A stretch of DNA of 64,000 nucleotides from an uncultured Thermoanaerobaculia bacterium (lineage in GTDB: Bacteria > Acidobacteriota > Thermoanaerobaculia > Multivoradales > JAGPDF01), in the NCBI GenBank assembly GCA_964476605.1, contig CAYZBH010000006.1:5476-69475 (forward strand), read 5' to 3'. The position numbers were made by a program, and so were the translations under genes. A model generated the notes under the pieces. The model was not told the origin of the DNA and ran no database searches. It worked only from the letters and a program-made list of their open reading frames with translations. Shown here one piece after another: positions 4,760 through 21,100 of this stretch (position 1 is its first letter; the number at the start of each line of letters is the position of its first letter).

Positions 4760-5788
4760 CTAGGAGACGCTGCCGTCAGCGTGGACCGTCCAGACGTCGC
4801 CCGATCGCAGCAGCTTCTCGAGGTTGCCGGGGCCGCGCTTCTCGCGCTCGCGCTCGAGCTGCCCGACGACGCCGCTCTCGAAGGTCGGGATCTCCACCTT
4901 CCGCAGCACGCCGATCGGGGTCGGGAAGTGCGGCGGCCCCATCTGAGCGACCATGAAGGCGATCGCCGGGTTGGTCCTCCCCGCCTCCCAGACCAGGCAG
5001 TCACCCGGGCCGAAGCCGTCGGCGAAGCGCACCACCTCGAGCTCGGTGCCGTTCAGCCGGATTCCGAGCTCCTTCTGCTTGCCGAAGACGAGCGGCTCGC
5101 CCTCTTCCAGGTAGACCAGCGCCTGGTCGCGCACCTCCTTCTCCGTGAGGTGCGCGTAGGCGCGGTCGTTGAAGATGTTGCAGTTCTGGTAGATCTCGAC
5201 GAACGCCGTGCCGCGGTGCGCGGCCGCCACCTTGAGCGTCTCCTTGAGGTGACCCTGGAAGACGTCGATCGAGCGGGCGACGAAAGTGGCGCCGCTCCCG
5301 ATCGCCACCGCGAGCGCGTTGAACGGGTAGTCGATCGAGCCGTAGGGGCTGGACTTGGTCTTCTTCCCGACCTCGGAGGTCGGCGAGTACTGCCCCTTGG
5401 TGAGGCCGTAGATCCGGTTGTTGAACATCAGGATCTTGACCCCGACGTTGCGGCGCAGGGTGTGGATCAAGTGGTTGCCGCCGATCGAGAGCGCGTCGCC
5501 GTCCCCGGTCGCGATCCAGATCTCCAGATCGGGTCGGCTCATCTTGAGCCCGGTGGCGATCGCCGCCGCGCGCCCGTGGATGGTGTGAAAACCGAACGTG
5601 TTCATGTAATACGGAAAGCGACTCGAGCAGCCGATTCCCGAGATCACCACGAAGCGCTCGCGCGGGATGCCGAGCTCGGGGAAGACGCTCTGGACCGCGG
5701 AGAGGATCGCGTAGTCCCCGCAACCGGGGCACCAGCGAACGTCCTGATCGTTCTGGAAGTCCTTCTTCGTCAGCGTGGTCGTGCTCAT
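4760..5788 (-). CDS. korB: 2-oxoglutarate:ferredoxin oxidoreductase beta subunit (TPP-binding).
   Basis: The internal start MSTTTLTKKDFQNDQDVRWCPGCGDYAIL...GIGCSSRFPYY...IATGDGDALSIGGNHL is classic KorB. The upstream 319 codons of track ORF 4760..6745 are Arg/Gly/Pro garbage. The ATG overlaps the korA stop (ATGA). Confidence 0.9.
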   Translation of the reverse strand: MSTTTLTKKDFQNDQDVRWCPGCGDYAILSAVQSVFPELGIPRERFVVISGIGCSSRFPYYMNTFGFHTIHGRAAAIATGLKMSRPDLEIWIATGDGDALSIGGNHLIHTLRRNVGVKILMFNNRIYGLTKGQYSPTSEVGKKTKSSPYGSIDYPFNALAVAIGSGATFVARSIDVFQGHLKETLKVAAAHRGTAFVEIYQNCNIFNDRAYAHLTEKEVRDQALVYLEEGEPLVFGKQKELGIRLNGTELEVVRFADGFGPGDCLVWEAGRTNPAIAFMVAQMGPPHFPTPIGVLRKVEIPTFESGVVGQLEREREKRGPGNLEKLLRSGDVWTVHADGSVS

Positions 5789-7665
5789 CGGGCGTCGGCT
5801 CCCAGGATCTCGCGGATCTTCGCGACGATCTCGTGGCGGAAGAAGGGCTTGCCTTGGACCTTGGAGTAGGAGATCACGGGCTCGAGAAAGCGCCCCTGCA
5901 AGAGCAGCGCGAGCTGGCCCAGGTTCATTTCGGGCACCAGCACCCGCTCGAAGCGCGCCAGGACGTCTCCGAGGTTGCTCGGGAAGGGATTGAGGTATCG
6001 CAGATGCGCCCGGCTCACCCGGAGCCCGTCGCGCCGGGCCTGATTCACGGCGCCGGTGATCGCCCCCGCGGTCGAGCCCCAGCCGAGCACCAGGAGAGCG
6101 TCCCCGGGCGTACCGTCGACTTCGAGCGGCGGGATGTCGCGGGCGATCCGCTCCACCTTCTCGGCCCGCAAGTGGATCATCCGCTCGTGGTTCATCGGAT
6201 CGTAGGAGACGGCGCCGCTCCCGTCCTGCTTCTCGAGGCCGCCGATCCGATGCTCCAGACCGGGCGTGCCCGGGATCGCCCAGGGACGCGCGAGCGTCTC
6301 CGGATCGCGCCGGTAGGGCTGGAAGCCCTCGACCTGGGCGTGGAATTCCACCGGGAACTCGGGGAGCGTGGCGACGTCCGGGAGGCGCCACGGCTCCGAA
6401 CCGTTCGCCAGGTAGCCGTCGGAGAGCAGCACCACCGGCGTCATGTAGCGCACCGCGAGGCGCGAAGCCTCGAGCGCCATCGCGAAGCAATCGGCCGGAG
6501 AAGAGGCGGCGAGCACCGGCATCGGCGACTCGTTGTTGCGCCCGAAGAGCGCCTGCAGCAGGTCGGCCTGCTCCGTCTTGGTGGGAAGTCCCGTCGAGGG
6601 TCCGCCCCGCTGCACGTCGACCACGACCATCGGCAGCTCGACCATCACCGCCAGGTTCATCGCCTCGCTCTTGAGCGCCAGGCCCGGCCCCGAGGTCGAG
6701 GTCATCGCCAGGGCGCCCCCGAACGCGGCGCCGATCGCCGCGCAAACCGCCGCGATCTCGTCCTCGGCCTGAAAGGTCGTGACCCCGAAGTGCTTGAACT
6801 GCGCGAGGTCGTGCAGGAGGTCCGAGGCGGGCGTGATCGGATAGGCCCCTTGAAAGAGCGGTAGGCCGCAGCGGCGGCTGGCGGCCACGAATCCGAGCGC
6901 CATCGCGGTGTTGCCGGTGATGTTGCGATAGACCCCCGGCTCGAGCTTCGCCGGCACGACCTCGTAGCGCGTCTGAAAGGCCTCGGTGATGTCGCAGAAG
7001 TTCCAGCCCGCCTTGAGCACCTTGACGTTGGCCTCGGCGAGGTCGGGCTTGGCCGCGAACTTCGCGTGGATCCAGCGCTCGGTGGCCTCCAGCGGGCGCG
7101 AGAAGAGCCAGTAGGCCATGCCGAGCGCGAAGAAGTTCTTGCAGCGCTCCTGGCTCTTCGCGTCGAGCTTGCTCCCCTCGAGGGCGCGGCGCGTCAGCGT
7201 CGCGAGCGGGGCCGGGAAGAGCTGGTAGCGCGCCAGCGAGTCGTCCTCGAGCGGATTCGCCTCGTAACCCGCCTTCTTGAGATTGCGCTCCTCGAACTCG
7301 TCGGTGTTGACGATCAGGATGCCGTTGGACTTGAGGTCGGGGAGATTGACCTTCAGCGCCGCGGGATTCATGGCCACCAACACGTCCGGCGCGTCGCCCG
7401 GCGTGTGGATGTCGTAGTCGGCGATGCGCACCTGGAAGGCGGAGACGCCGGGCAGCGTGCCGGCGGGCGCGCGGATCTCGGCCGGAAAGTCCGGAAAGGT
7501 CGCGAGGTCGTTGCCGAGCAGCGCCGAGGTGGAGGTGAATTGCGTGCCCGTGAGCTGCATGCCGTCGCCCGAGTCGCCGGCGAAGCGGATGACCACGTCG
7601 TCGCGCCGTTCTGCACCGGCCGGCCGCGAGCGCTTCGAAGGCTTGTCGAGGGTGTCGAGACTCAT
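5785..7665 (-). CDS. korA: 2-oxoglutarate:ferredoxin oxidoreductase alpha subunit.
   Basis: 626 aa with MSLDT...VVIRFAGDSGDGMQLTGTQFT...AYPITPASDLLH...GGPSTGLPTKTEQADL. KorA-type fused pyruvate-flavodoxin-oxidoreductase domains III/I. Confidence 0.9.
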   Translation of the reverse strand: MSLDTLDKPSKRSRPAGAERRDDVVIRFAGDSGDGMQLTGTQFTSTSALLGNDLATFPDFPAEIRAPAGTLPGVSAFQVRIADYDIHTPGDAPDVLVAMNPAALKVNLPDLKSNGILIVNTDEFEERNLKKAGYEANPLEDDSLARYQLFPAPLATLTRRALEGSKLDAKSQERCKNFFALGMAYWLFSRPLEATERWIHAKFAAKPDLAEANVKVLKAGWNFCDITEAFQTRYEVVPAKLEPGVYRNITGNTAMALGFVAASRRCGLPLFQGAYPITPASDLLHDLAQFKHFGVTTFQAEDEIAAVCAAIGAAFGGALAMTSTSGPGLALKSEAMNLAVMVELPMVVVDVQRGGPSTGLPTKTEQADLLQALFGRNNESPMPVLAASSPADCFAMALEASRLAVRYMTPVVLLSDGYLANGSEPWRLPDVATLPEFPVEFHAQVEGFQPYRRDPETLARPWAIPGTPGLEHRIGGLEKQDGSGAVSYDPMNHERMIHLRAEKVERIARDIPPLEVDGTPGDALLVLGWGSTAGAITGAVNQARRDGLRVSRAHLRYLNPFPSNLGDVLARFERVLVPEMNLGQLALLLQGRFLEPVISYSKVQGKPFFRHEIVAKIREILGADAR

Positions 7666-7749: not shown

Positions 7750-8640
7750 TCAGCCGCCGACGACCTCGCCGCGCCCCCCTCGCAGCAGCTCGAGGAGGGG
7801 TGCCGTCACCGTCTCCGGGTGCTCCCAGAGAATGAAGTGCCCCGCCCCGGGATAGCGGTGGACGACCAGGTTGGCCGCCGGCAGGACGCCTTCGACGAAG
7901 TCGGCGTTGGCGGGCGGAACCAGCCGATCGGCCGTCCCCTGCACCAGACGCACCGGGCAGCGGATCTCCGGCCAGCGCGGCGCCATCCTCTCGAGCTCGC
8001 CGCGGAGCGGCCAGAGCTCCCGGTTCGAGACCACCCAGTCGATGGGCAGCAGGAGCTGGATCAGCCGCCAGGAGCCCGCGACGTTGAACCAGCGGCGCCG
8101 CTCGAGGACCGGGTCGACCGACGGCGCGACCAGCAGCAGACCCGCCACGAGGTCGGGTCGGTCCATCGCCAGGCGCGCGGCGATCGGCCCGCCCAGACTG
8201 TGCCCCACCACCACCGCGGGCGGCCCGGCCTCGCTTTCGAGCACCGCCGCGAGCGCCTCCGCCTGACGCGCCAGCGATGGCTCCGCGTGGCCACGCCCCG
8301 AGCCGCCGTAGCCCGGCCGGTCGGGCGCCAGCAAACGCGCTGCCCCGGTGAGCCCGGGCTCGGTCAGGAAGATCCGCCAGGCCTCCCAGGTCCCCGGCGA
8401 TCCGTGCACGAAGAGAACGCGGGGCGCTCCCGGCTCGGCGCGTCCGGCGGTCACCACGTGGACCGGTCCGTCCGGGCCGGCGACGAAGCGGCTCACGAGA
8501 GCGGCGGCGCGCATCGCCGGCGTATCCACCGCGGGGGCGAACGAGGGGCCGAAAATCGCGCAACCCGCCGCCAACGCCAGGATGCCGGCGAGCGCGGCTG
8601 CGGCGATCCATCCCCACCGACGGCTGATCCCGGTTCGCAT
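7750..8640 (-). CDS. Alpha/beta-hydrolase fold lipoprotein (lipase/esterase or epoxide-hydrolase-like).
   Basis: 296 aa. Signal peptide with lipobox LAAGC, then VLFVHGSPGTWEAW, nucleophile elbow GHSLGG, C-terminal HFILWEHPE (catalytic His). Last gene of the 7750-15970 operon. Confidence 0.75.
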   Translation of the reverse strand: MRTGISRRWGWIAAAALAGILALAAGCAIFGPSFAPAVDTPAMRAAALVSRFVAGPDGPVHVVTAGRAEPGAPRVLFVHGSPGTWEAWRIFLTEPGLTGAARLLAPDRPGYGGSGRGHAEPSLARQAEALAAVLESEAGPPAVVVGHSLGGPIAARLAMDRPDLVAGLLLVAPSVDPVLERRRWFNVAGSWRLIQLLLPIDWVVSNRELWPLRGELERMAPRWPEIRCPVRLVQGTADRLVPPANADFVEGVLPAANLVVHRYPGAGHFILWEHPETVTAPLLELLRGGRGEVVGG

Positions 8641-8664: not shown

Positions 8665-10737
8665 CTACCTCGCGAGCTCTCGACCTCCGAGCCAGCTGAG
8701 GAGCAGCGGCAGGGCGAAGACCGAGAGCAGCATCGACCAGACCACGCCGAGCGAGAGCACGCCCGCGAACGAGGCCAGCCCGCGATGCGCGGTGAAGGCG
8801 AGCGGACCGAAACCCGCGAGCGTATTGAGCGCATTGATGAGCAGCGTTCGTCCGGTGCCCGAGAGCGTGCGCCCGAGGTCCCCCGCCTCGGAGCGGAAGC
8901 GGTGGGTGAGATGCACGCCGTTGTCCACCGAAACGCCGACGACGATCGGCAGCGCGAGGATGTTGAGCGGGTTGAGATCCAGGCCCAGGAGCCGCATGCC
9001 GCCAAGGAGACCGGTCATCGTGAGGGCGGTCGGGGCGAGCGCGAGCAACGTCCAACGGACGCTGCGAAAGTCGGCTGCGGCCATCGCCAACGCGAGCAAC
9101 GCCGCGAGCACGCCCGTGATGGCGAGGGCGCGCTGCGAGCGCCCGATCATGAACTCGCCGAGCACCGGCATGCCGGTGACCCCGGGATCGAGCCGGCGCA
9201 TCTCGGCGAGGAAAGCGTCGCGGAACTCGGGCTCCCAGATGTCCCCTGCCGGATAGGCGTAGACGGCGAAGCGCCCCGCGGAGTCCACGAAGCTCTTCTC
9301 GAGATCTCGCAGCTCCGCGCTCTCGGAGCCGCCCGCGAGCGCCTGGAGGCGCTCGAGGTCGAGCTCCGAGCGCACCTGCCCGACGAGCGGCGAGGCTCTG
9401 AGCTCGTTCACGAGCGCTCGCGCGGCGTTCCGGTCGGCCGCCACGAAGGCGGCGAATTGCGGCGACAGCGCCGACCGCTTCACCATCTCACGCTCCAACC
9501 GCACCGCCTCCGACCCCACCGGTTGGAGGTCGAGGTAGTCGCCGTCGAAGCGGGGCCAGGGCAGAACGATGCCGACGAGCGCCGCGCCGAGCAGGAGCAG
9601 AGTGCCGCCCGGGCGCTGGCATCGCACCAGCACGGCGCCGAAGAGGCGTTCGCGCGCTCCGCGATCGCCGGACGTCCGGCGCGGCAGCAGCGCGAGGAGC
9701 GCCGGCAGCAGGGTCACCGCCGCAACCAGTGACAGGAGGATGCCGAGCCCCGCCATCCAACCGAGCTCCGCGAAGCCCCGAAAGCCGGAGACGGTGAGCG
9801 TGAAGAGGGCGAGAGCGGTGGTGAGCGCGCCGGTCGCGAGCCCGCGCCCCAACCGGCGCACCCCTTCCGCCACCGCGCCCGGGAGCTGCCAGCCCAGCAG
9901 CTGCAGCTCCTCCGTACGATCGACGACGTGGATCCCGTAGTCGATCCCTTGGCCGAACAGGGTCGAGAAGAAGAACGCCGAGACGAGCGTCAGATGTCCG
10001 GGGACGAAGGCCGCGACGCCGAGGGTCGCCGCCATCGCGGCGAGCAACGCTCCGGTCGCCGCGAGCGGCCAGAGCCATTCGTGGAACCCCGCCACGAACA
10101 GCGCCACGACCAGCACCAGCGAGAGCAGCGAGAGGCGCGAGAGGTCGCGCTGGATGATGTCGCGATCGTCGAGCGCGTACTGCGGCAGGCCGGTGAAACC
10201 GGCGTGGATCCCCGCCGCGTCGAGAGCCTCCGCCGCGATCTCGGCCCGCACGCCGGCCACGAAGGGGGCGATCTTCTCGGCGCGGGACTCGGCGTCGGCG
10301 GGCTGCACGAAGACGAAGGCCATCCCCCGGTCGTCGGTCATCAGGTGGGGCTCGAGGCCCAGGGCCTCGAGCGTCGCATCCGGGAACGGGAGGCGGGAGA
10401 GCGCGGCGCGGACGTCGTCGCGCCGTCGCACCGCGGCCGCGATCCGGTCCGCGGCTTCGCCCAGCACCTCGGGATCTCCCCCTTCGAGCGCCACCACCAG
10501 CATGTTGGGCGTTCCGAAGCGGGCCGCGAAGTCGCGGAAAGCGGCGACCGGCGGGAGCCTCGGATCGATCAGGTCGAGATTCGACGTCTTGAGCCCGAGC
10601 CGCGTCACCGTGAGGGCGAGCGCGACCGCCACGATCGCGAGGGCGAGGACGAGCGTGACGACGGGGCGCGCCGCCGACCGCGCCGCCAGGGCGCCGAGGA
10701 GCTCCCCCCAGCGATCCCGCTCGCCCGAGCCGCTCAC
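8665..10737 (-). CDS. MMPL/RND-superfamily exporter (HpnN-like, sterol-sensing-domain type).
   Basis: 690 aa with two repeats of TM1, a large periplasmic loop and a 5-TM bundle. The MMPL-like segments GIDYGIHVVDR and VSVDNGVHLTHRF lie in the two halves. The ATG overlaps the stop of the upstream cytochrome fusion gene (ATGA at 10734-10737). Confidence 0.8.
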   Translation of the reverse strand: MSGSGERDRWGELLGALAARSAARPVVTLVLALAIVAVALALTVTRLGLKTSNLDLIDPRLPPVAAFRDFAARFGTPNMLVVALEGGDPEVLGEAADRIAAAVRRRDDVRAALSRLPFPDATLEALGLEPHLMTDDRGMAFVFVQPADAESRAEKIAPFVAGVRAEIAAEALDAAGIHAGFTGLPQYALDDRDIIQRDLSRLSLLSLVLVVALFVAGFHEWLWPLAATGALLAAMAATLGVAAFVPGHLTLVSAFFFSTLFGQGIDYGIHVVDRTEELQLLGWQLPGAVAEGVRRLGRGLATGALTTALALFTLTVSGFRGFAELGWMAGLGILLSLVAAVTLLPALLALLPRRTSGDRGARERLFGAVLVRCQRPGGTLLLLGAALVGIVLPWPRFDGDYLDLQPVGSEAVRLEREMVKRSALSPQFAAFVAADRNAARALVNELRASPLVGQVRSELDLERLQALAGGSESAELRDLEKSFVDSAGRFAVYAYPAGDIWEPEFRDAFLAEMRRLDPGVTGMPVLGEFMIGRSQRALAITGVLAALLALAMAAADFRSVRWTLLALAPTALTMTGLLGGMRLLGLDLNPLNILALPIVVGVSVDNGVHLTHRFRSEAGDLGRTLSGTGRTLLINALNTLAGFGPLAFTAHRGLASFAGVLSLGVVWSMLLSVFALPLLLSWLGGRELAR

Positions 10738-12668
10738 GAGCCCCGCTCCGCTCCCGGCGGGCGGCGGGGACCCGCGAGGCGCAGCACGAACTCCACCAGG
10801 TCGGCGACCTCTCCCGGGCGGAGCGTCTCGTGCCCCGGCATCGAGGTCGGCGGCGCCCCGAAGCGCACCAGGCGCTCGAGCTCGCGCCGCTCACCCGCCG
10901 CGTCGAGACCCGGCGGCAGGTGGATGAAGAAGCCCTTGGCGAGGTCCATGGCCGGGCGCGCGATCGACGCCGCGAGCGCTCCGTCGCCGCGCCCGGACGC
11001 GCCGTGACAAGGGGCGCAGAGCGCCGCGAAGAGGCGCGCTCCGCGCGCCGCCGAGGGGGCTCCCGTCGCGGTCTCCGGCGGGAGCGCCGCCACCTGCCGC
11101 GCGCGCTCGTCGGCGTGCCCCGCGCCCAGGCTGCCGAGATAGGCGACCAGATCGCTCCCCCGCCGCCCGTCGCCCGCGAAGAGGTCGGCATAGGAGGGCA
11201 TCCGCGAGCCGGGGATCAGAGCGCGGGGATTCGCCAGGTGGACGCGCTGCCAGAAGTCGCTCCGTCGCAGGCCGACGTTCGCGAGATCCGGGCCTTGGCG
11301 CCGCATGCCGACGAGCGGCGGCTGCTCGGCGCGATCGAGCGCGCGCGCGGGCCCCCAGAGCGCCTCGTCGCGAGTCCCGGGGCGGACGAATTGCGAGTGG
11401 CAGTGGATGCACCCCTCGGCGACGTAGACGGCGCGCCCGCGAGCGACGGCGGAGCGATCGTCGAGCGGGGACCTTCCGGCGCAGCCGGTCGCCCCGAGGC
11501 CGAGAGCGCCGACGAGCGCCGGGACCACGGCCGCTGCGAGCCACGATCCCTGGCTCTGCCGGCCTCGGACGAGCGCGAAGGTCCCGACGAGCAGCGCCCC
11601 GGCGCCGAGGACCGCCGTCGTCGGCACGCGCCCGAGATCCTGCGCCATGCCGACGCCGAGCGCCGAGCCCACCCATCCGGAGATCCCGTAGAGCACTCCC
11701 GCGCGCCACCCCGGGCGCCCTGCCGCGGGTTCCGCGAGCGCCGGAAAGGCGACGAGCGCGGTCGAGTAGATGGCAATCCCGATCGCGTAGAGCCAGGCGC
11801 CGGCGCGCGCCGAGGGACCGCCTGCCGCGAGGATCGGGAAGGCGAGCGCGAAGAGCCCCCAGGTGGCGAGGAGCGCGACCTTCCAGCGCCCGCGCTCCAG
11901 CCAGAGTCCCGCGGCGAACGCGGCGGCGAAGTGCACGATCCCTTGCACGAGGGTCCAGGCGCCACCATCCCAGGAGACCGCGGCGAGCGCGGGGGCCCCA
12001 TGGAGGACGGCGAACGCCGCCGCATCGAGCCCGACCAGCAACAGGAAGGCAATCGCCGCGGCCGCCAGCGGAAGGGTCTCGCGATTCGCGAGCGGTGGGC
12101 TCGGCTCGCCCGCCCCGCGCGGCGGCAGGAAAGCGGCCACCGCGGCGAGCAGGGCGGGCTCCCACGCCCGGAGCTCGATCGAGCCCGCGAAGAGCGGCGG
12201 CAGATTGGAGAGGAGATAGGCGAGACCGGTGCCGGCGCCCACGACGAGCGCCGGCCGACCGCTCCTCGAGAGTCGAGCCAGGTTTCCCGCGAGAGCGACG
12301 GTGAGGATCCCCACCGAGAGACCGATCGCCGCGGCCGTCGCCGCCAGGGCGAAGGGAGCGCGCGCGAAGGGCGATGCCGCGGCGACGACGGCCGCCAGCG
12401 CGAGGCCGAAGGAGACGGCGCGGGTCGCCTCGAAACGCTCGAGCCGGCGCCCCATCCCCAAGCTCGCCAGAAGCCCCGCGATCCCCATGGCGGCCATCGC
12501 CGCGCGAACTCCGTCTCCGTCGAGCGACCGCTGGAGCTGCTCGAGGAAGCCGAACTGCGCGAACAGGAGGAAGAGGTGATAGGTCGCCGCGATCGCCAGG
12601 AGCAGGCGACGATCCGCGACCAGAGCCCGCCCGATCGCAGCGAGCGCACCCCGCGCTCCGGCGCTCAC
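10734..12668 (-). CDS. Three-part fusion: MFS-like transporter domain, then a CcoO/FixO-type monoheme cytochrome c, then a second class-I c-type cytochrome domain.
   Basis: In-frame translation from a GTG at ~12668, which overlaps the stop of the small upstream gene as GTGA. It gives ~390 aa of MFS-like membrane domain (GIAGLLASLGMGRRLERF = MFS motif A-like, many TM helices). Then a TM anchor plus GRAVYVAEGCIHCHSQFVRP...QGPDLANVGLRRSDFWQRVHLANPRALIPGSRMPSY, which matches the FixO/CcoO signature EGCxxCHSQ...GPDLxxVGxxxxxxWxxxHLxNPRxxxPxSxMPxY. Then a second heme site LFAALCAPCHGASGRGDG...TSMP. The first ~154 codons of track ORF 10734..13130 are Arg-rich and overlap a better ORF in another frame, so I exclude them. 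Confidence 0.7.
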   Translation of the reverse strand: MSAGARGALAAIGRALVADRRLLLAIAATYHLFLLFAQFGFLEQLQRSLDGDGVRAAMAAMGIAGLLASLGMGRRLERFEATRAVSFGLALAAVVAAASPFARAPFALAATAAAIGLSVGILTVALAGNLARLSRSGRPALVVGAGTGLAYLLSNLPPLFAGSIELRAWEPALLAAVAAFLPPRGAGEPSPPLANRETLPLAAAAIAFLLLVGLDAAAFAVLHGAPALAAVSWDGGAWTLVQGIVHFAAAFAAGLWLERGRWKVALLATWGLFALAFPILAAGGPSARAGAWLYAIGIAIYSTALVAFPALAEPAAGRPGWRAGVLYGISGWVGSALGVGMAQDLGRVPTTAVLGAGALLVGTFALVRGRQSQGSWLAAAVVPALVGALGLGATGCAGRSPLDDRSAVARGRAVYVAEGCIHCHSQFVRPGTRDEALWGPARALDRAEQPPLVGMRRQGPDLANVGLRRSDFWQRVHLANPRALIPGSRMPSYADLFAGDGRRGSDLVAYLGSLGAGHADERARQVAALPPETATGAPSAARGARLFAALCAPCHGASGRGDGALAASIARPAMDLAKGFFIHLPPGLDAAGERRELERLVRFGAPPTSMPGHETLRPGEVADLVEFVLRLAGPRRPPGAERGS

Positions 12669-13072
12669 CGCGCCACGATCCTCCGCGCGGCGGGACGCAA
12701 GGCGAGTTGGAGAGCGGCGACGAGCGCGTCGTAGCCACCCACCCAGAGCCAAGGCGCCCCCAGCGCTCCGCTCGCCACCGAGACCGCGAGAAAGCCAGCA
12801 ACCGCGAAGCGCGGCAGAGCGGTCAGCGCGAAGGCCGCCCGCAAGCGGTCGCCCCGTTCCGAGGCGGGCGCTGCGAACGGCCAGAAGTAGGCGGCGCCGA
12901 CGCTCGCGACGAAGGTGCCGACGAACCGCAGCAGCACCGGCTCCGCGACCGCGGGGAGCGCCAGCAACCGCAGCACCAACTCCGGCGCCGCGAGCAGGGC
13001 GAGACCCGTTCCGAGGTCCCCCGCCCCCGCGGCGATGGCGAAGAGCGGCGCGCTGCGTGCGCGATCGATCAC
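12665..13072 (-). CDS. Small hydrophobic membrane protein (~135 aa, about 4 TM), unknown function.
   Basis: The C-terminal 135 codons of track ORF 12665..14173 are protein-like and hydrophobic (PLFAIAAGAGDLGTGLALLAAPELVLRLLALPAV...GALGAPWLWVGGYDALVAALQLAL), while the upstream part of that ORF is Arg-rich noise. A GTG at ~13072 overlaps the stop of the upstream gene (GTGA), and its own stop overlaps the GTG of the downstream cytochrome fusion. No homology assignable. Confidence 0.45.
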   Translation of the reverse strand: MIDRARSAPLFAIAAGAGDLGTGLALLAAPELVLRLLALPAVAEPVLLRFVGTFVASVGAAYFWPFAAPASERGDRLRAAFALTALPRFAVAGFLAVSVASGALGAPWLWVGGYDALVAALQLALRPAARRIVAR

Positions 13073-14409
13073 CGGGACACCCGGCGCGCGGCACGCCACC
13101 AGAGGAGCGAAGCGATGAGCATCGAGGCACCCCCTAGCCAGCGGAGCGAGTAGAGCACGGAGATCGGCGTCAGCTCGCCGGGAAGGGCGCTCCAACCCGC
13201 GCCCGGATCGCCCCCCTCGACCCACCCGGCCGCGGCCAGGACGAGGATCTGGAGCAAGCATCCCGCCTGCCAGAGCAGAAAAGGGCGCCCCGCCGTCAGC
13301 CCTGCGGCCACGCCGTCGGGAGCCGAGGCGACGAGTAGCAGCATGCCGAAGGCGCTCATCATGCCCGCCATCGCGAGGTGCGCGTGCGCGACGAGGCCGT
13401 CGGTGAACTTCAGACGATCGAGCACGCCGGGCTGGAAGGTCGCGAGCGCGCTCGCGAGCAAGAGCCCTCCCCACGCGAGAAAGGCGATCCGCCAGCGTCG
13501 CGTCGGCTGGGGCCAGTGGTGGGCGGCGTAGAGGCGCGGCAGGAAGACGGCCCAGACGAGCAGCGAGGCGAGCGCGAGCTGCTCGAGGGTGTCGCGGTGC
13601 GTCCGCTCGCCATGGTCGAGCCCGAGGAAGACCATCGTGTGCAGCGCCAGGAGGGCGACGATCCAGGCGCTCCGCGGCGACGAGCGGCGACGCTCGAGAC
13701 CCAGGAAGGCCGGCGCGGCGACGAAGATCCAGATCACTCCGAGCGTCGAGCCGAGCAGGCTGACGCCCGTCGGCCCTCCGCTCGCGGGGTTGACCGGCGG
13801 ATAGGTCGCGTCGCTCTCGCCCAGAGCGAGCCACGCGGGAACGCTGAGCAGCACGAGCCAGAGCGCCGCTCTGGCGAACCACGGCCGCGAGCCACCGCTT
13901 CCGGGCCCGCCATCCCGCGTCCTTCCCGGACGGGTGCGCCAGAGTCCGACGCCGAGCACGGCCGCGAGTGACAGCTGCGCGGCGACGAACGCGAGGTTCG
14001 CGGGACCTCTCCAGTCGAGGAACGGCTTGCCCCCGCTCCCACCCAGGAGCCAGCTCGCGGTTCCGGCGACGAGAGCGAGCGACCAGAGCCCGAGGGCGAG
14101 ACGCCCCAGCCCGCACTCGCGCGGACCCAGGAAGAGACGGAAGAGGAGCCCAACGAGCGGTAGCGCCCCCCAACCGTAGAGCTCGAGATCGAGGTGGACG
14201 GTCGCCCAGCGCCCGTAGCTCAAGGGCGCGAGAACGTCACCCAGCCGGGGCGCGAGCAGCAGGGTGGCGAGCAGCAGTCCCACCCCGTTCGCCCCGACGA
14301 GCCACCCGAGGGCATGACGCGCGACCAGGCGGCCGAGCTCCCCTTCCCACGCGACGACGATCTCCGCCCGCGGCAGCGCGTGATCCTCGCCGTGCGTCGC
14401 TCGGGTCAC
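13069..14409 (-). CDS. His-rich polytopic membrane protein (446 aa, ~10-12 TM). Possible heme/copper-binding redox subunit. Not a canonical CcoN.
   Basis: Hydrophobic throughout. Conserved-looking His sites lie at TM boundaries: H32, H72 (RWATVHLDLELYGW), H257/H266/H271, an HH pair (LYAAHHWPQ) and an HxH (LVAHAHLAMAGMM). The ATG at 14409 overlaps the polyprenyl synthase stop (ATGA) and its stop overlaps the next gene. Confidence 0.6.
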   Translation of the reverse strand: MTRATHGEDHALPRAEIVVAWEGELGRLVARHALGWLVGANGVGLLLATLLLAPRLGDVLAPLSYGRWATVHLDLELYGWGALPLVGLLFRLFLGPRECGLGRLALGLWSLALVAGTASWLLGGSGGKPFLDWRGPANLAFVAAQLSLAAVLGVGLWRTRPGRTRDGGPGSGGSRPWFARAALWLVLLSVPAWLALGESDATYPPVNPASGGPTGVSLLGSTLGVIWIFVAAPAFLGLERRRSSPRSAWIVALLALHTMVFLGLDHGERTHRDTLEQLALASLLVWAVFLPRLYAAHHWPQPTRRWRIAFLAWGGLLLASALATFQPGVLDRLKFTDGLVAHAHLAMAGMMSAFGMLLLVASAPDGVAAGLTAGRPFLLWQAGCLLQILVLAAAGWVEGGDPGAGWSALPGELTPISVLYSLRWLGGASMLIASLLWWRAARRVSR

Positions 14410-15353
14410 GCGCAGCGGCGGCTCGTCGCGCGCAACCCGAGCTCCGCCGCTTCGGCTTCGAAATGGCGCTGGAGCCTCGAGAGCGGCCGGCGCATCGTCT
14501 CTCCGAGCTCTGGCGCCGCCAAGGTACGGGCCGCCCTGGCGAGAAGATGGGCGAGCCTTCGACGGGCCCGCCCCTCCCCGGCGAGTCTCGGGAGACTGGG
14601 ACGTCCCAGGGTCCGGTCCCGCGCCCCGGTCTTACCGCTCTCCGCGACGGAAAAATGCTCGTCCTTGAGGTCGTCGAGCCCCTGATACGCGAGACCCCAG
14701 CTCTCGGAGAGGCGCTCGAGCCGGCCGAGCACCTGGTCGCTCGCTCCGGCCACCAACGCCGGCAGCACGATCGCGAGCCGGATCAGCGGCACCGTCTTGC
14801 CCCGCGCCACCCGGAAGGCCGCTTCCGCTCCTCGCGCCGACGCCTCCGCCTCCGAGCCGAAGTGCAGATCGCGCGACTGGCCGTCGAGCAGCCCGGCCAC
14901 CCCGAGCGAGCGCTCGACCAGATCCGCCGCCGCTTGGCGGCGCACCGCCGGGAGAGTGGCGAGCACCTGCCAGAGGAGCGCGTAGCCACGGGTGATCAGC
15001 GCGAGAGCTCCGAGGATCGCCGCCCCTTCGCCGAAGGCTCGGTGCGGACAGGGCCGCCCGCGGCGCTCCGCGGCGTCGTCCATCGACGGGAGATCGTCGA
15101 AGACGAGAGAGGCGCTGTGAAAGTACTCGACCGCGATCGCGAGCCGGCGCGAAGCTGTGGCGTCGAGCCCCTGCGCGGTCGCGATGCCGAACGCGAGTTG
15201 CGCCCGGCCGAGGCTACCGGGGTGGCGAAGCAGGTCCGCGAGCACCGCCCGCAGCCGAGGCTCGACCGCCGCGGACACCGACAGCGAGCCGGAGAAGGCC
15301 TGCCGGAGCCGGGCCAGCTCGACCGGCGAAACCAGGCGAGGCGCGTCGCTCAA
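14406..15353 (-). CDS. Polyprenyl diphosphate synthase (trans-isoprenyl diphosphate synthase family, IspB/GGPPS-like).
   Basis: First aspartate-rich motif LVFDDLPSMDDAAERRGRP (FARM, DDxxD) and second motif GLAYQGLDDLKD (SARM). The first ~38 codons of track ORF 14406..15467 are Arg-rich and overlap the YceI gene. A TTG at ~15353 overlapping the YceI stop (TTGA) is proposed as the start. Start uncertain. Confidence 0.8.
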   Translation of the reverse strand: MSDAPRLVSPVELARLRQAFSGSLSVSAAVEPRLRAVLADLLRHPGSLGRAQLAFGIATAQGLDATASRRLAIAVEYFHSASLVFDDLPSMDDAAERRGRPCPHRAFGEGAAILGALALITRGYALLWQVLATLPAVRRQAAADLVERSLGVAGLLDGQSRDLHFGSEAEASARGAEAAFRVARGKTVPLIRLAIVLPALVAGASDQVLGRLERLSESWGLAYQGLDDLKDEHFSVAESGKTGARDRTLGRPSLPRLAGEGRARRRLAHLLARAARTLAAPELGETMRRPLSRLQRHFEAEAAELGLRATSRRCA

Positions 15354-15970
15354 CGGCCACCGCCCGCCGATCCGCTCGCGTCGCTCAAATTCCCTTCCGC
15401 GTGCACGCTCACGGTGACCACGGGGTCGACGCGCAGGAAGAAGATGCTCGGATCGTGCAGGCCCCACTCCACGAAGGGGACGGCGAAAGAGGTCTCCGCG
15501 ACCGCCCGGGTTCCCTGAATCTCCGCCTTGACGGGCAAGGCCAGCGGATGCGCGACGCCGTGCAGCTGAAACGTCCCGTGCAGGGTGAACTCCCCCTTGC
15601 CGCTCTCGGGGACTGTTCCTTCGACGCGATCGATCGCGAGCACGATCTCCGGGAACTTCACGATCTCGAGCACGTCCTGCCGCATCGTCTTGTCCCGGCT
15701 CTTGTTGCCAGTCTCGCCGCCCGTGGCGTCGACCACGATCTCGCCGGAGGCCGCGCCGCTCGCCGAATCGAAACGGAGCGAGCCCCGCGTGAGGTGAAAC
15801 GATCCTTCGACGTCGTGTCCGGTCGCGGGAAGGGCGATCGTGACGCGCGTCGCTTCCGCGGCGAGATCGAGCTGGCGCTCGCTCGCCCGGGCGGCCCCGG
15901 GCGCGAGCGCCGTCAGGGCCATGAGGACGATCCCGAATCCCTGCTGCTTCGACTGTGCTCTCGCGCTCAA
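15350..15970 (-). CDS. YceI-like periplasmic polyisoprenoid-binding protein.
   Basis: 206 aa with signal peptide MSARAQSKQQGFGIVLMALTALAPGAARA, then a YceI-like 8-stranded barrel sequence including FTLHGTFQLHGVAHPLALPVKAEI (cf. YceI LTLHGVTKPV). Start codon appears to be TTG. Confidence 0.8.
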   Translation of the reverse strand: MSARAQSKQQGFGIVLMALTALAPGAARASERQLDLAAEATRVTIALPATGHDVEGSFHLTRGSLRFDSASGAASGEIVVDATGGETGNKSRDKTMRQDVLEIVKFPEIVLAIDRVEGTVPESGKGEFTLHGTFQLHGVAHPLALPVKAEIQGTRAVAETSFAVPFVEWGLHDPSIFFLRVDPVVTVSVHAEGNLSDASGSAGGGR

Positions 15971-16109: not shown

Positions 16110-16796
16110 GTGCGTCTCCTGATCGTGGAGGACGAACGGCCGCTGGCGCTCCACCTCGCGAAGGGACTCCGCGAGGAGGGGTTCGCCGTCGACGTCGCGG
16201 CCACCATCGAGCAGGCCAGCGAGCTCACCGTCGAGACCTCCTACGACCTCGTGCTGCTCGACCGCGGCCTCCCCGACGGGGACGGGGTCCGGCTCCTCCA
16301 CGCGCTGCGGGAGCAGGGGTGGACGGCGCCGGTCCTCGTGCTGACGGCCCGCGATCTCACCTCGGACAAGGTCGAAGGCCTGGACTCCGGCGCCGACGAC
16401 TACCTGACGAAGCCCTTCGCCTTCGCGGAGCTGCTGGCGCGGGTGCGGGCCCTCCTCCGGCGCCGGGGCCTCGAGCCGGCGATGGTCCTGACGGTGGACG
16501 ATCTGCGCCTCGACCGGACCGCGCGCTTGGCCGAGCGCGCCGGAGCCCCGCTCGAGCTCACGCCGAAGGAGTACGCGCTGCTCGAGTACCTGATGCTGCA
16601 CGCCGGCGCCGCGAAGTCACGCGCCGAGATCGCCGAGCACGTCTGGGACCTCTCGTACGAAGCGCGCAGCAACGTCATCGACGTCATCGTCGCCCGCCTC
16701 CGGCGCAAGCTCGAGGCGGGTGGCCGGCCTCGCCTGCTGCAGTCGGTGACCGGGCTCGGCTACGCGCTCCGTCGCCTCGAGGAGGAGCCGACCTGA
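16110..16796 (+). CDS. OmpR-family response regulator (receiver plus winged-helix DNA-binding).
   Basis: VRLLIVEDERPLALHLAKGL...LLDRGLPDGDG...DDYLTKPFAFAELLARV...LTPKEYALLEYLM...VIDVIVARLRRKLE. GTG start at 16110. Confidence 0.9.
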   Translation: MRLLIVEDERPLALHLAKGLREEGFAVDVAATIEQASELTVETSYDLVLLDRGLPDGDGVRLLHALREQGWTAPVLVLTARDLTSDKVEGLDSGADDYLTKPFAFAELLARVRALLRRRGLEPAMVLTVDDLRLDRTARLAERAGAPLELTPKEYALLEYLMLHAGAAKSRAEIAEHVWDLSYEARSNVIDVIVARLRRKLEAGGRPRLLQSVTGLGYALRRLEEEPT

Positions 16797-18160
16797 TTCG
16801 CGCCCGTTCTCTCCGACGCGCCTTCGCCTGGTGGTTCGGGACGACGATGGTCGCCCTCTACGGCTTGACCTCGACCGCGATCTGGTATCAGAGCCGGTCC
16901 ACCTCGCGCAGCTTCGCGGTCCTCTCGCTGAAGACGGAGGCGGAGGCGATCGCGAGCTACCTCGCTTCGAGCCGACGGATCGACCCGCCGGAGCTCGCCG
17001 AGCCCGAGCATTCGGCGCTGCCCCTCTGGATCCGCATCCTCGAGGAGGGTCAGGTCGTCGGCGCGACGCCCGGCATTCCCGACCTGCCGGTCGCGGCCGG
17101 GCTGCCGGACCTCCGGAGCACGGACCAGGTGCGCTATCTCGAGTCTCCCATGCCGCTCGCGGTCGTGCAGCACGAGGTCGGCGGCCGCCGCCCCGGCATG
17201 ATCGTCGAAGCGGTGGGCTCGCTCGTCGATCTCCGCCGCCGCGAGCGCAAGCTCGGGCTCGGGCTCCTCCTGGGCGGTCTCGCGGTGCTCCCTTTGGCGG
17301 GTCTCGGCGGTCGCTGGCTCGCCGGACGTACCCTGCGCTCGCTCGATTCCCTCGTGGGTTCCATCCGCCGCATCGAGTCCGGTTCGCCGGGCTCGCGGCT
17401 CACCCTCCCCCCGAGCTCGTTCGAAGAGGTCGCGATCGTCGCCAACGCCTTCAACGACCTGCTGGAGCGTCTGCAGGCGACGCTCGAGGGGATGCGACGC
17501 TTCACGGCCGACGCCTCGCACGAGATCCGCAATCCGCTTTCGGTGCTCCGGACCGGCCTCGAGGTGGCGCTGCGGCGCCCCCGCGCTCCGGAGGAGTACC
17601 AACTGCTCCTCCGCCAGAACCTGCGCGAGATCGAACGTCTGGATGCGGTGGTGGAGGGTCTCCTCGCGCTCGCCCGCCAGGAACCGGGGAGCGGCGTCGC
17701 GCTCGCGCGCGCCCCTCTCGACTTCTCCGGGCTCCTGACGCAGACCCTGGAGAGCTTCGCGGTGGTGGCGGCGGAACGGGGCGTGACGCTCGACGGCGGC
17801 ATACCGCGCGGCCTGCGGGTGGAAGCGGACGAACGGCTGCTCCGGCTGGTGACGTTCAACCTGCTCGACAATGCCCTCAAGCACAGCCCCGAAGGGAGCA
17901 GCGTCCGGCTCCGCCTGACGTCCGTCGAGGGCCAGCTCGCCCTGCGGGTCAGCGATCAGGGCCCAGGCGTCCCCGAGGACGAACGTCCCCGCCTCTTCGA
18001 CCGCTACTTCCGCGGCCGCGACGCCTCGACCCGCGGCGGCACGGGCGGCCTCGGTCTCTCCGTCGTGCGCTGGGTCGTGGAGGCGCACGGTGGCACGGTG
18101 CGCCTCGTTCCCGATCCGCCCGGAACGACCTTCGAGGTCCTGCTCCCCGCCCTCGTCTAG
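16793..18160 (+). CDS. Sensor histidine kinase (2 TM periplasmic sensor, HisKA plus HATPase_c), partner of the OmpR regulator.
   Basis: H-box ADASHEIRNPLSVL, N-box FNLLDNALKHSPEG, G-boxes DQGPGVPEDE and GGTGGLGLSVV. The coding frame continues from the response-regulator stop (TGA 16794-16796). The exact start is unclear; a CTG at 16793 or a nearby non-ATG start is possible. Confidence 0.85.
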   Translation: MIRARSLRRAFAWWFGTTMVALYGLTSTAIWYQSRSTSRSFAVLSLKTEAEAIASYLASSRRIDPPELAEPEHSALPLWIRILEEGQVVGATPGIPDLPVAAGLPDLRSTDQVRYLESPMPLAVVQHEVGGRRPGMIVEAVGSLVDLRRRERKLGLGLLLGGLAVLPLAGLGGRWLAGRTLRSLDSLVGSIRRIESGSPGSRLTLPPSSFEEVAIVANAFNDLLERLQATLEGMRRFTADASHEIRNPLSVLRTGLEVALRRPRAPEEYQLLLRQNLREIERLDAVVEGLLALARQEPGSGVALARAPLDFSGLLTQTLESFAVVAAERGVTLDGGIPRGLRVEADERLLRLVTFNLLDNALKHSPEGSSVRLRLTSVEGQLALRVSDQGPGVPEDERPRLFDRYFRGRDASTRGGTGGLGLSVVRWVVEAHGGTVRLVPDPPGTTFEVLLPALV

Positions 18161-21100
18161 CTCCGCCGGTCCACCCGCGCGCGGCGCAGTCGGAGCGCCG
18201 CGAATCCGGCCAAGAGGAGGGCCAGCGCCGCGAGACCCGGCCCACCGAGAGTCGGGATCTCGAGCAACTCGCGGAAGATCTGGAAGACCGTCGGATCGGC
18301 GGCGTCCGGCGTCGCCGGATCGTCGCTCACCGCCGAGGACTCGTTCGACCCGTCGCCGTCCCCGTCGAAGTTGACCACCGCCTGGTTCGAGAAGGTCGCG
18401 CCGTGCTCGACGTCGTCGGGGATCCTCGCCTCGATGGTGATGGTCACGCTGCCACCGGCCGGGACCACGCCGTTCCAGGTCACGAGATTCGTCCCCGGAT
18501 CCGCCGCCGCGGTGCCGGAGGTCGCGGTCGCGCCAACGAGGATCAAACCCGTGGGAACGCTGTCGACCAGCTCGTCCCCGGCGTTGTCCGACTGATCCGC
18601 CGGCCCGGCGTTCGTGAGGACGAGGGTGTAGAAGATCGTTCCGCCCGGCGTCAAGTCCCCCGCGACGCTCTTCGTGGCGCTCAAAGCCGCCGGCGCGACG
18701 ACCGGCGTCACGACCGTCGCCGCGTTGTTGCCAGGTGCCGGGTCGCTCGTCGCCGCGCTGACGCTCGCCGTGTTGGTGAGCGTCGAGCCGGCCGTCACTC
18801 CCGCTCCCACGTGCACCGTGACCGAGAAGGCGGCCGGGCCGGAAACCAAGGTCGCCGTGGTGCAGGAGACGTTGCCGCCGCTCCCCACCGGCGGCGTCGT
18901 GCAGCTCCACCCCGCCGGAGCGGCCAGCGCCACGAAGGTGGTTCCGGCAGGCAGCGGATCGCCGACCGTGACACCCGCCGCCACGCTCGGGCCGGCGTTC
19001 GTCACGGTGAGCGTGTAGCCGAAGTCGAGCCCCGCGGTGGCCGTGCCGCCGCTCGCCGCCTTGGCTACGGCGAGGTCGGCGAGCGCGGTCACCGTCGTGG
19101 TCGCGGTGGCCGCATCGTTGGCCGCCGCCGGATCGCCGGTCGCGGCATCCACGGTCGCCGTGTTCGAGAGCACCAGACCGCTGGGGAGCGCGGCGTCGAC
19201 CGCCACGGTGAGGGTGAAGACGGCGCTGCCGACCGCGAAGAGTGGCGTCGCGCAGGAGACCGTGCCGGTCGACCCGACCGTCGGCGTCGTGCAGCTCCAA
19301 CCCCCCGCCCCGGCAAGTGAGACGAAGGTCGTGCCGGCTGGCAGGGTGTCGCTCCAGCTCGCCGCAGCGGCCGCGTTCGGTCCCGCGTTGGCGACCGTGA
19401 GCGTGTACGTGAGCGGGGTACCCGCGACGACCGGATCGGTGTCCTCGACCTTGGTGATCGACAGATCGGCGATCGGGAAGAGTCCCACCCGCACCGGGTC
19501 GTGGTCCGAGGCCCGGTAGGGCGACGCCGGCTGGAAGACGACCCGCGGTGGCACGAGGGCGGAGCCGTCGGGCTTTTCCTCGAACGCCGATTCGCCCACG
19601 TCCTTGACCTCGTCGTTGTAGTCGAAGAGGGGATTCTCGTCGGCGTTGATGTGCCACGGGGCGATCCCCGTGACCTCGGCGGCGAGGCCGGCGCTCGCGA
19701 GCGCATAGTCGAGGTGGCCGAGCTGGCCGTCGAAGAGGTAGGAGTAGCCGGCGGTCCCGAGGAGGCTGGTCAGCAGGTCGGTGAAGCCGCCGCCCGCCAG
19801 GGTCGCGATCGGATCTTCTTCGGAGTAGGAATTGAAATCGCCCAGGAGCAGGAGGTCCGGGTCGCCGGCCGCCGGCACCACGGTGCCCGCCAGCCAGGTG
19901 AGCAGGCGCGCGGCCTGCGCGGAGCGGCGGGCGTTGTAGCAGCCCTGGCCGTCGTTCTGATCGAGATCGGAGCCGGTCGCGTCGGCGCACCCCTTCGACT
20001 TGAAGTGGTTGGCGACCACGGTGAAGCGCTGCCCGAAGGCCGGGTTGGCCACGTCGACGACGTCGAACGTCTGAGCCGTCGGCGGCCGGTTGTGGATCGG
20101 ATCGAGGTCGACGAAGGGCGCCCCGACCGGCGAGAGCACTCCCGTGCGATAGATCAGGGCGACCCGGATCGCGTCGGTGCCGAGGGTGCCGCCGGTGGAG
20201 ACGAACGCGTAGGGATGGGCGCCTCCGCAGCGCGCGTTGACCGCGCCCAGCAGGTCGGTGATCGTGTCGGCGGGGGTGGTGTTCTCGAGCTCGACCAAAC
20301 CGGCGACGTCGACATCGAGACCGCAGAGCACGATCGAGGCCCGCTCGCGCTGGCGGTTGAGCTCGGCCACGCTGTCGGCGCCCCGGCAGTCCTGCAGCCC
20401 ATCGGGACCGCAAGGGCCGGAGGTGGAGCTCGCCGTGGTGTCGATGGTCGTGAAGTAGTTGAGCAGGTTGACGCTCGCCGCGCGGATCGAGCCTCCCACG
20501 GCCGGCGGTGCGGCCGGCCGCGGATTGGCGACCGTGAAGGCCGCAGGCGTCGCCGCCGTCGGACGGATCCGCCAGGCGTCGGTGCCCGAGAGTCCGGAGA
20601 AGGACCAGTGCAGCACTCCGGTGAGACCGGTGACCAGATCGCCGCCGCGGAAGAAGTCGACGCCCTGCGTACCCACCGAGAGGCCGCCGTTGGCCACCGG
20701 ATGGAAGACGAACTGGAAGCCGTCGGCGAGCGCCAGCGGCACGTTCTGGGCGTCGTCATCGTCGTCGAGGATCACCCGGCGCCGAGCCAGCGCGTCGAGG
20801 TGCGCGGCGTAGCCGGCGACGCTCGGCGCCGCGATCGAGGTGAACTGGCCCGGCCGTCCCCCCTCGAAGAGCTCGATCGTCCCGTAGCGCGCCTGCTCGA
20901 AGTACTCGGCGACGGTGAGCGCATCGACGAAAGTGACGCGCATCCCCTCGACCGGCTCGTAGGTGTCGTCGATCGATGGCGTCACCACCGGCAGATCGAT
21001 CGGCGCCGGCGTCGCTTCCGCCAAGTGGTTGCCCGCGTCCGTGACCAGGACCGAGCCCGCCGCCGTGGCACTGATCTCGGTCATGCCGAAGAACTCGCTG

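Follow-up and report, generated by a model that had tools for sequence, protein, structure and literature searches.

A CcoN-like membrane protein without the canonical CuB site, encoded among isoprenoid and lipid-export genes in an uncultured Thermoanaerobaculia bacterium

We analysed a 64,000-nucleotide stretch of DNA from an uncultured Thermoanaerobaculia bacterium of the phylum Acidobacteriota (GenBank assembly GCA_964476605.1, contig CAYZBH010000006.1, positions 5,476 to 69,475), which we refer to as the window. Our subject is a minus-strand gene encoding a membrane protein of 446 amino acids (aa), hereafter the CcoN-like protein, together with its neighbours: genes for a polyprenyl diphosphate synthase and a YceI-like protein upstream, and for a small membrane protein, a fusion of a major facilitator superfamily (MFS) transporter with c-type cytochrome domains and an RND lipid exporter downstream (Table 1). 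The open reading frame (ORF) reported for the CcoN-like protein in an initial annotation is real, as it begins with a GTG start codon and ends in TGA, and an NCBI gene product with the identical 446-aa sequence exists on an 89.8-kb contig. The residues pointed out in that annotation are also all present: LYAAHHWP (H297/H298), LVAHAHLAMAGMM (H342/H344), H32, H72, Y78 and H257. H298 and H342 are 44 residues apart, with a single transmembrane helix (IX, residues 301-324 in our AlphaFold2 model) in between, again as had been described. The description of the protein as His-rich does not hold, as 11 His in 446 residues is 2.5%, about the average content of a protein. With this number of His residues we calculated that ~0.27 HH pairs and ~0.27 HxH pairs would be expected by chance, meaning that only conservation can tell which of the two motifs matters.

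Searched as a single sequence, the CcoN-like protein had no match in Pfam or NCBIfam at E ≤ 1, including to the NCBIfam ccoN model, and nothing useful was found in the PDB, so that profiles were required. The window protein failed the threshold of PF00115 (Pfam COX1), as did most of a set of 51 relatives, 8 of which matched COX1 (best E = 5.8e-12). A protein collection contained 296 relatives, many of them labelled "cbb3-type subunit 1" by JGI and a few with PF00115. A profile built from the 51 family sequences matched only CcoN chains in the PDB (9g6b_A, E = 4.8e-8; 3mk7_A, E = 2e-6). The AlphaFold2 model (predicted local distance difference test score (pLDDT) 88.3, predicted template modelling score (pTM) 0.90) contains 12 transmembrane helices, and its best Foldseek matches were to CcoN (3mk7_A, E = 3.4e-8; TM-scores of 0.61-0.66 for CcoN, up to 0.66 for 8smr_E), followed by NorB of cNOR, the nitric oxide reductase that depends on cytochrome c, and then by ba3 and other oxidases. 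Full-length alignments of the model to CcoN, NorB and ba3 had TM-scores of 0.55-0.66. As hhalign against one CcoN covered helices I-IV only, we assembled a CcoN reference profile of 7 sequences from annotated plasmid records and used global mode. This profile aligned to our alignment of 201 family homologues, from which all conservation counts below are taken, over 405 columns and the whole length of the protein (probability 99.0%, E = 5.3e-17).

Profile search, global hhalign and Foldseek all point to CcoN, and the CcoN-like protein belongs to the heme-copper oxidoreductase (HCO) superfamily, is full-length and is closest to the C family. This bears out the earlier suggestion of a very divergent oxidase-like subunit, and not that of a miniaturised oxidase, as all 12 core helices are present. 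The NnrS (PF05940), cytochrome b561 and cytochrome bd families, which had also been put forward for comparison, were rejected as the identity of the protein: none of them matched in Pfam or NCBIfam at E ≤ 1, and no b561 or bd fold was among the Foldseek matches listed.

Two His residues, H72 in helix II and H342 in helix X, are found in every one of the homologues. In the alignment, H342 takes the place of the His that is the proximal ligand of the CcoN high-spin heme, and H344 that of the second axial ligand of low-spin heme b; the latter column is His in 71% of homologues and Phe, Leu or Ile in the other 58. The family and CcoN also share the helix II motif GR..H and an Arg that is conserved in helix XII, and H32 is conserved in 94% of homologues. 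The HxH had therefore been read correctly as the helix X heme motif, its first His being invariant. The same cannot be said of the HH pair, which had been proposed to be a pair of CuB ligands: column 297 is Phe in 172 of the 201 homologues (86%) and His in 7, and column 298 is variable. In the AlphaFold2 model the pair follows helix VIII (residues 284-295), rather than lying on helix VII, and stands ahead of an RRWR sequence; judging by this and by the topology of CcoN, the loop between helices VIII and IX would be cytoplasmic, across the membrane from the heme ligands. The presence of H297/H298 is compatible with chance. Lack of conservation among homologues, which the initial annotation had itself named as grounds for refutation, applies to HH but not to the first His of HxH. 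The spacing between HH and HxH appeared wrong for an oxidase because HH is the wrong motif, and is no sign of miniaturisation.

We then compared the positions which hold the copper site in CcoN. The CcoN segment WWYGHNAVG, which contains the helix VI CuB His, is replaced by a family signature, YPPVNPASGGPTGVSLLGS, in which Y203, P204, N207, P208, G211, G212, T214, G215, S217 and S221 are each ≥ 91% conserved. The CuB His itself aligns with V216 (in GGPTGxSLLGS), in a column of Ala, Gly, Val or Thr where His was found in only 5 of 201 homologues, all verrucomicrobial. The cross-linked Tyr of CcoN helix VII is missing from the family and aligns with a column of Leu or other aliphatic residues, and no HH pair stands at the canonical position where helix VII ends. 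What follows helix VII instead is a G-D-x-S-H-[H/R] loop (D268 in 148, S270 in 156 and H271 in 172 (86%) of the 201 homologues; position 272 is His in 98 and Arg, as in the window, in 83). This loop is the sole possible remnant of the CuB HH pair, and would supply at best one or two displaced His residues of the three ligands.

Other positions are conserved in the family in their own right. K128, Q276, K334, E398, R423 and the YPPxNPxxGGPTGxS segment are family-specific and invariant or nearly so, with R67, R423, E398 and K334 conserved at 99-100%. The homologues which keep H344 form a clade to which the window protein belongs, and 79% of this clade have H257, inside helix VII. In the clade without H344, E257 and C261 (replacing F261) are each found in 93% of members, and H124, H332 and Y387 are gained; this clade consists mostly of Acidobacteriaceae (e.g. 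loci L003, L029, L044, L046 and L056). The occurrence of conserved polar residues inside helix VII argues that the active site has been selected or rebuilt, rather than having decayed. It should also be noted that in one verrucomicrobial subclade (loci L021, L028, L035 and L062, at about 10001-11250, and protein P0110) the helix VI CuB His is kept (GGATGHSLL), together with N271/H272; this subclade possibly represents a stage on the way to losing the copper site.

Table 1 Features of the CcoN-like protein and its gene cluster in the window (position 1 is the first nucleotide of the window).
Feature	Position	Strand	Evidence and remarks
CcoN-like HCO-superfamily subunit, 446 aa, 12 transmembrane helices, without canonical CuB site	13069..14409	-	Profile, fold, conservation
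H72, helix II; aligns with CcoN low-spin heme b His (RPLH)	14194..14196	-	His in 201/201; CcoN alignment
H342-A-H344, helix X HxH	13378..13386	-	H342 201/201; H344 143/201; CcoN alignment
H297-H298, loop after helix VIII	13516..13521	-	Unconserved; AlphaFold2 helix positions
Family signature, periplasmic loop and start of helix VI	13747..13803	-	Conservation; CcoN alignment
H266-G-E-R-T-H271-R272, G-D-x-S-H-[H/R] loop after helix VII	13594..13614	-	Conservation
135-aa membrane subunit, no recognised family	12665..13072	-	Start overlaps CcoN-like stop (GTGA); 74/83 loci
MFS (12 helices) + transmembrane anchor/CcoO-like heme c + CcoP-like heme c fusion, 644 aa	10734..12668	-	Pfam, PDB, AlphaFold2, Foldseek
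Polyprenyl diphosphate synthase, type II geranylgeranyl diphosphate (GGPP)-synthase-like	14406..15353	-	Pfam 4e-30; 77/83 loci; probable TTG start at 15353, ORF reaches 15467
YceI-like periplasmic polyisoprenoid-binding protein	15350..15970	-	Pfam 2e-19; about 59/83 loci; putative N-terminal signal peptide, by eye
HpnN/MMPL-type (HAE3) RND lipid exporter	8665..10737	-	Pfam/NCBIfam; LolCDE/MacB-like ABC pair instead in the other operon type
OmpR-family response regulator, divergent	16110..16796	+	Best match CopR/CzcR/SilR subfamily, below curated cut-off
HAMP/HisKA sensor kinase	16793..18160	+	Best match CopS/CzcS/SilS subfamily, below curated cut-off
Alpha/beta hydrolase, lipoprotein-like N-terminus, last cluster gene	7750..8640	-	Pfam; beside module in few other loci, loose association

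The genes around the CcoN-like protein are tightly packed. Start and stop codons overlap by 4 nucleotides (GTGA) at four junctions, joining the prenyl synthase, CcoN-like, 135-aa, fusion and RND genes in turn, and with the TTG start proposed for the prenyl synthase, that gene would likewise overlap the stop codon of the YceI gene; the GTGA overlaps are consistent with translational coupling. Comparison with homologous loci showed that the ORF at 10734-13130 (798 aa) is two genes in different frames, the products of which are both found exactly in NCBI, and we rejected a single 798-aa "MFS + FixO" gene as an artefact of high GC content. The CcoO-like cytochrome is thus encoded by the second gene downstream of the CcoN-like gene, not three genes downstream as had been stated. 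The proposal that the two are partners was borne out genomically, as they are encoded together in 76 of the 83 loci compared.

The first of the two genes encodes the 135-aa membrane protein, for which no known relatives were found in our searches. At least 5 database proteins (P0259, P0283, P0289, P0343 and P0364; 554-608 aa) carry it as an extension of the CcoN-like C-terminus, and such natural fusions support a physical complex. In a further protein, P0315 (1130 aa), the fusion of the two runs on into the MFS-CcoO-cytochrome c part, possibly via a frameshift. The second gene encodes the 644-aa fusion protein (100% identical to P0121), which matched Pfam FixO (5e-22) and Cytochrom_C (1.5e-13) and, in the PDB, CcoO (E = 9e-31), CcoP (E = 1e-10) and only distantly NorC (E = 2e-3). 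Its AlphaFold2 model had a pLDDT of 89, and Foldseek matched the 12-helix domain to OxlT, NorA, MdfA and other MFS transporters. Both of its CxxCH motifs and their Met ligands are invariant among homologues. The neighbouring CopRS-like two-component system led us to consider the MFS domain as a possible CcoA-like copper importer, although only D215 and H246 are present as conserved residues. The Met/His motifs which we take to be typical of CcoA are not evident in this domain.

Of 71 orthologues of the prenyl synthase, 70 have DDxxxxD as their first aspartate-rich motif and Ala/Ser at positions -5/-4 to it. By what we understand to be the published chain-length rules, this combination presumably marks a type II GGPP synthase, not a farnesyl diphosphate or long-chain synthase. 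A role in heme O/A-type prenylation was not favoured, as there is no heme O synthase in the core of the operon and the UbiA protein of some loci is MqnP/UbiA-like and not CyoE-like. The divergent OmpR-family regulator and HAMP-containing kinase adjoin the operon in about 50 loci.

Relatives of the CcoN-like protein were found in 413 genomes in a scan of one genome per species, and mainly in Acidobacteriota (Thermoanaerobaculia; Acidobacteriaceae including Edaphobacter modestus DSM 18101, Occallatibacter savannae and Granulicella) and Verrucomicrobiota (DG1235, Opitutales and Lacunisphaera), with further members in Lentisphaeria and a small number of others. With HMMER, searched exhaustively at E ≤ 1e-30, we counted 223 clusters at 50% identity. 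Gene order is conserved over 83 loci from at least 3 phyla, in two operon architectures. Type 1, which is that of the window, consists of YceI, prenyl synthase, CcoN-like protein, small subunit, MFS-CcoO-cytochrome c fusion and RND exporter, and at some loci also includes a UbiA/MqnP-like prenyltransferase and a MenG/UbiE-like methyltransferase. Type 2 consists of prenyl synthase, an FtsX/LolC-like permease, a LolD-like ATPase, CcoN-like protein, small subunit, MFS-CcoO-cytochrome c fusion and YceI. The state of H344 follows the operon type, with its absence co-occurring with the ABC-type operon. At 20 type 2 loci (L076 13645-14661 and 19 others) a hydrolase of the metallo-beta-lactamase fold (Lactamase_B_2) lies downstream of the module. 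No ccoQ, ccoP or ccoGHIS genes were seen beside the CcoN-like operon, and no denitrification genes (nor/nir) were seen in the neighbourhoods of family loci. We found no description of the family in the literature searched; it is widespread and undescribed, and its members are unannotated or often mislabelled as cbb3 oxidase.

CcoN (PDB 3mk7, 5djq, 8smr and 9g6b) is the best match of the family in both sequence and structure, sharing the 12-helix fold, the helix II His and the helix X HxH, and cbb3 oxidases likewise have c-type cytochrome partners of the CcoO and CcoP kinds. Three features of CcoN are absent from the CcoN-like protein: the CuB His in helix VI and, in helix VII, both the cross-linked Tyr and the HH pair with which that helix ends. 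Its operon also differs from those of cbb3 oxidases in that the cytochromes are fused to an MFS domain, an extra 135-aa subunit is encoded and a prenyl synthase, YceI and a lipid exporter are included. NorB of cNOR (PDB 3o0r and 4xyd), the second-best structural match, is a C-family-related HCO which also has neither the Tyr cofactor nor copper. However, cNOR keeps three active-site His and a Glu for FeB (PMC11214002), a His set which the CcoN-like family does not have, and there are no nor/nir genes nearby; the cytochrome partner domain is also much nearer to CcoO (9e-31) than to NorC (2e-3). Murali et al. (2024) described further HCO families (eNOR, sNOR, gNOR, nNOR, NOD and a putative N2O reductase) which, like the CcoN-like family, are without the active-site Tyr, and which have altered active sites (PMC11214002). 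As the CcoN-like family lacks both the helix VI His and the HH pair, it would fall outside the described set of HCOs, going by the published descriptions (PMC11214002). The family works most like a cytochrome c-linked heme protein of the cbb3/cNOR type, and has the active site of neither. Outside this family, we also found a CcoN homologue annotated as "hypothetical protein" on a Ralstonia solanacearum megaplasmid (CP022773.1; L090 3719-7353), 30% identical to the P. aeruginosa CcoN query and with CcoO-, CcoP- and SCO-like genes after it; this looks like a further C-family variant that has gone unannotated.

Members of the CcoN-like family have probably already been studied under another name. 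Trojan et al. (2021) reported "cbb3" genes in Terriglobus roseus KBS 63 (Terro_4248-4250) and Acidobacterium capsulatum (ACP_0885/0887/0888), which were barely expressed, went down and not up at nanomolar O2 and did not confer high-affinity respiration at nanomolar O2 (PMC8407424). These loci were published as conventional high-affinity oxidases, but their order of ccoN, a gene of unknown function and ccoO is that of the CcoN-like operon (PMC8407424). We found that the T. roseus quantitative PCR primers of that study fit the CcoN-like gene in locus L063, with 1 and 4 mismatches and at exactly the published spacing of 283 bp. The published A. capsulatum reverse primer encodes MAMAGF, the helix X motif of the family, and matches family genes with 2-3 mismatches. 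Judging from primers and synteny, the T. roseus and A. capsulatum "cbb3 oxidases" are very probably members of this CuB-less family.

On balance, we favour the reading that the CcoN-like protein is subunit I of a cbb3-derived membrane complex, which has lost the canonical CuB/tyrosine site and kept the heme scaffold and which serves an envelope isoprenoid-lipid module; we consider this probable, with considerable room for doubt. Electrons would move along a chain of periplasmic cytochrome c, the c hemes, heme b and a five-coordinate high-spin heme. The distal pocket of this heme may have been rebuilt from the YPPxNPxxGGPTGxS segment, from the G-D-x-S-H loop and, within helix VII, from H257 in the clade of the window or E257/C261 in the other. 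With neither CuB nor Tyr in the pocket, canonical four-electron reduction of O2 is unlikely, and the complex would not reduce O2 by the heme-copper mechanism. The module would synthesise a prenyl diphosphate of the C20 type and move out of the inner membrane a lipophilic product, isoprenoid or quinone-like, for which the MFS domain, the RND or LolCDE-like extractor and YceI are candidate carriers; a CopRS/HprRS-like two-component system would be in control. The operon content suggests that the redox module acts on, or together with, this exported lipid. More tentatively, and at well under even odds in our judgement, the HCO scaffold may have been re-purposed beyond O2 or NO respiration altogether. 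Its active site would then hold heme alone, or heme together with a metal bound in a non-canonical manner (by H257, H266, H271 and D268 in the first clade and by E257, C261 and H271/H272 in the second), and the MFS-CcoO-cytochrome c subunit would feed it. A lipid or quinone derived from GGPP would be acted on by it or would gate it, and would then be extracted by the RND or LolCDE-like pump and carried by YceI.

Several points weigh against the favoured reading. The alignment of helix VII to the GPHH of CcoN is uncertain by 1-3 residues. Roughly half of the family has HH at positions 271/272, which could be what is left of the CuB pair in a shifted place, and the protein may conceivably bind a metal in a non-canonical way. 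H344 is absent in 29% of the family, which leaves the ligation of the low-spin heme unexplained there, and heme binding as a whole is predicted from homology alone. The link to isoprenoid export comes from gene neighbourhood only, and the two-component system scores under the NCBIfam cut-offs for heavy-metal sensors.

A rival reading is a working terminal oxidase or NO reductase, in which a non-heme Cu or Fe is held beside the high-spin heme by relocated ligands (e.g. H257, H266, H271 and D/E268 in the clade of the window). The G-D-x-S-H-[H/R] loop is conserved and on the periplasmic side, H257 lies roughly at the depth of the CcoN Tyr, one verrucomicrobial subclade has kept the His at the helix VI CuB position and the CcoO/CcoP-like electron entry is intact; cNOR, moreover, sets a precedent for an HCO scaffold with three His and a Glu for FeB (PMC11214002). 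Even so, we regard such an enzyme as unlikely: none of the three canonical ligand positions is conserved across the family, the Tyr cofactor is missing and the candidate replacements differ by clade (H257 against E257/C261, H266 against R266). Nor do the near-silent homologous genes support high-affinity O2 respiration (PMC8407424), and the lack of visible denitrification genes in the neighbourhoods does not favour a NO reductase. Another reading is a redox-dead pseudo-enzyme, in which the oxidase fold would survive solely to serve the exporter as a scaffold in the membrane or as a subunit that handles lipid. The loss of the CuB site, the tight setting of the gene among lipid-export genes, the loss of the second heme b ligand in 29% of members and the very low expression in culture (PMC8407424) are in line with this. 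H72 and H342 are nevertheless invariant, R67, R423, E398 and K334 are almost so and the two c-heme motifs of the partner never vary; such conservation of cofactor ligands across phyla would be unexpected in a redox-dead protein, and we think this explanation improbable. The least credible reading, to which we give almost no weight, is the earlier one of a miniaturised oxidase or NnrS-like heme-copper protein with its metal site formed by HH (297/298) and HxH (342/344). Both motifs do exist in the window sequence, but the first gives way to Phe in most homologues and would face the other side of the membrane, and a protein with 12 helices and without matches to NnrS, b561 or bd at E ≤ 1 fits neither description.

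If the family is indeed without a copper site, there are consequences for how genomes are read. Many family proteins carry names in JGI and NCBI calling them cbb3 oxidase subunit I or II, and where "cbb3" is present in soil Acidobacteria and Verrucomicrobia, microaerobic respiration of high affinity is widely inferred from it; such inferences would be wrong for hundreds of species. The loss would also explain why the acidobacterial "cbb3" failed to support respiration at nanomolar O2 (PMC8407424). The family is a natural experiment on an oxidase scaffold with hemes but without CuB and Tyr, and cultured carriers exist in Edaphobacter modestus, Occallatibacter savannae and Verrucomicrobiae DG1235, as well as, by the primer and synteny comparison, probably A. 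capsulatum and T. roseus. The fixed GGPP-type synthase, YceI and two alternative lipid extractors point to an uncharacterised envelope pathway. Were the re-purposed scaffold to prove correct, it would be the first relative of the oxidases devoted to redox chemistry of envelope isoprenoids, under two-component control of the copper/oxidant type.

Two further regions flanking the cluster were annotated. Directly downstream of it, at 4760-7665 on the minus strand, are two ORFs for subunits of a 2-oxoacid:ferredoxin oxidoreductase (POR_N/POR; TPP-binding domain). On the other side, at 18157-22446 and also on the minus strand, is a gene for an extracellular endonuclease of the ExeM/NucH family (1429 aa) with DUF11 repeats, the C-terminus of which (EIPTLGG...LRLRR) resembles, by eye, a putative sorting signal of the IPTL-CTERM type.

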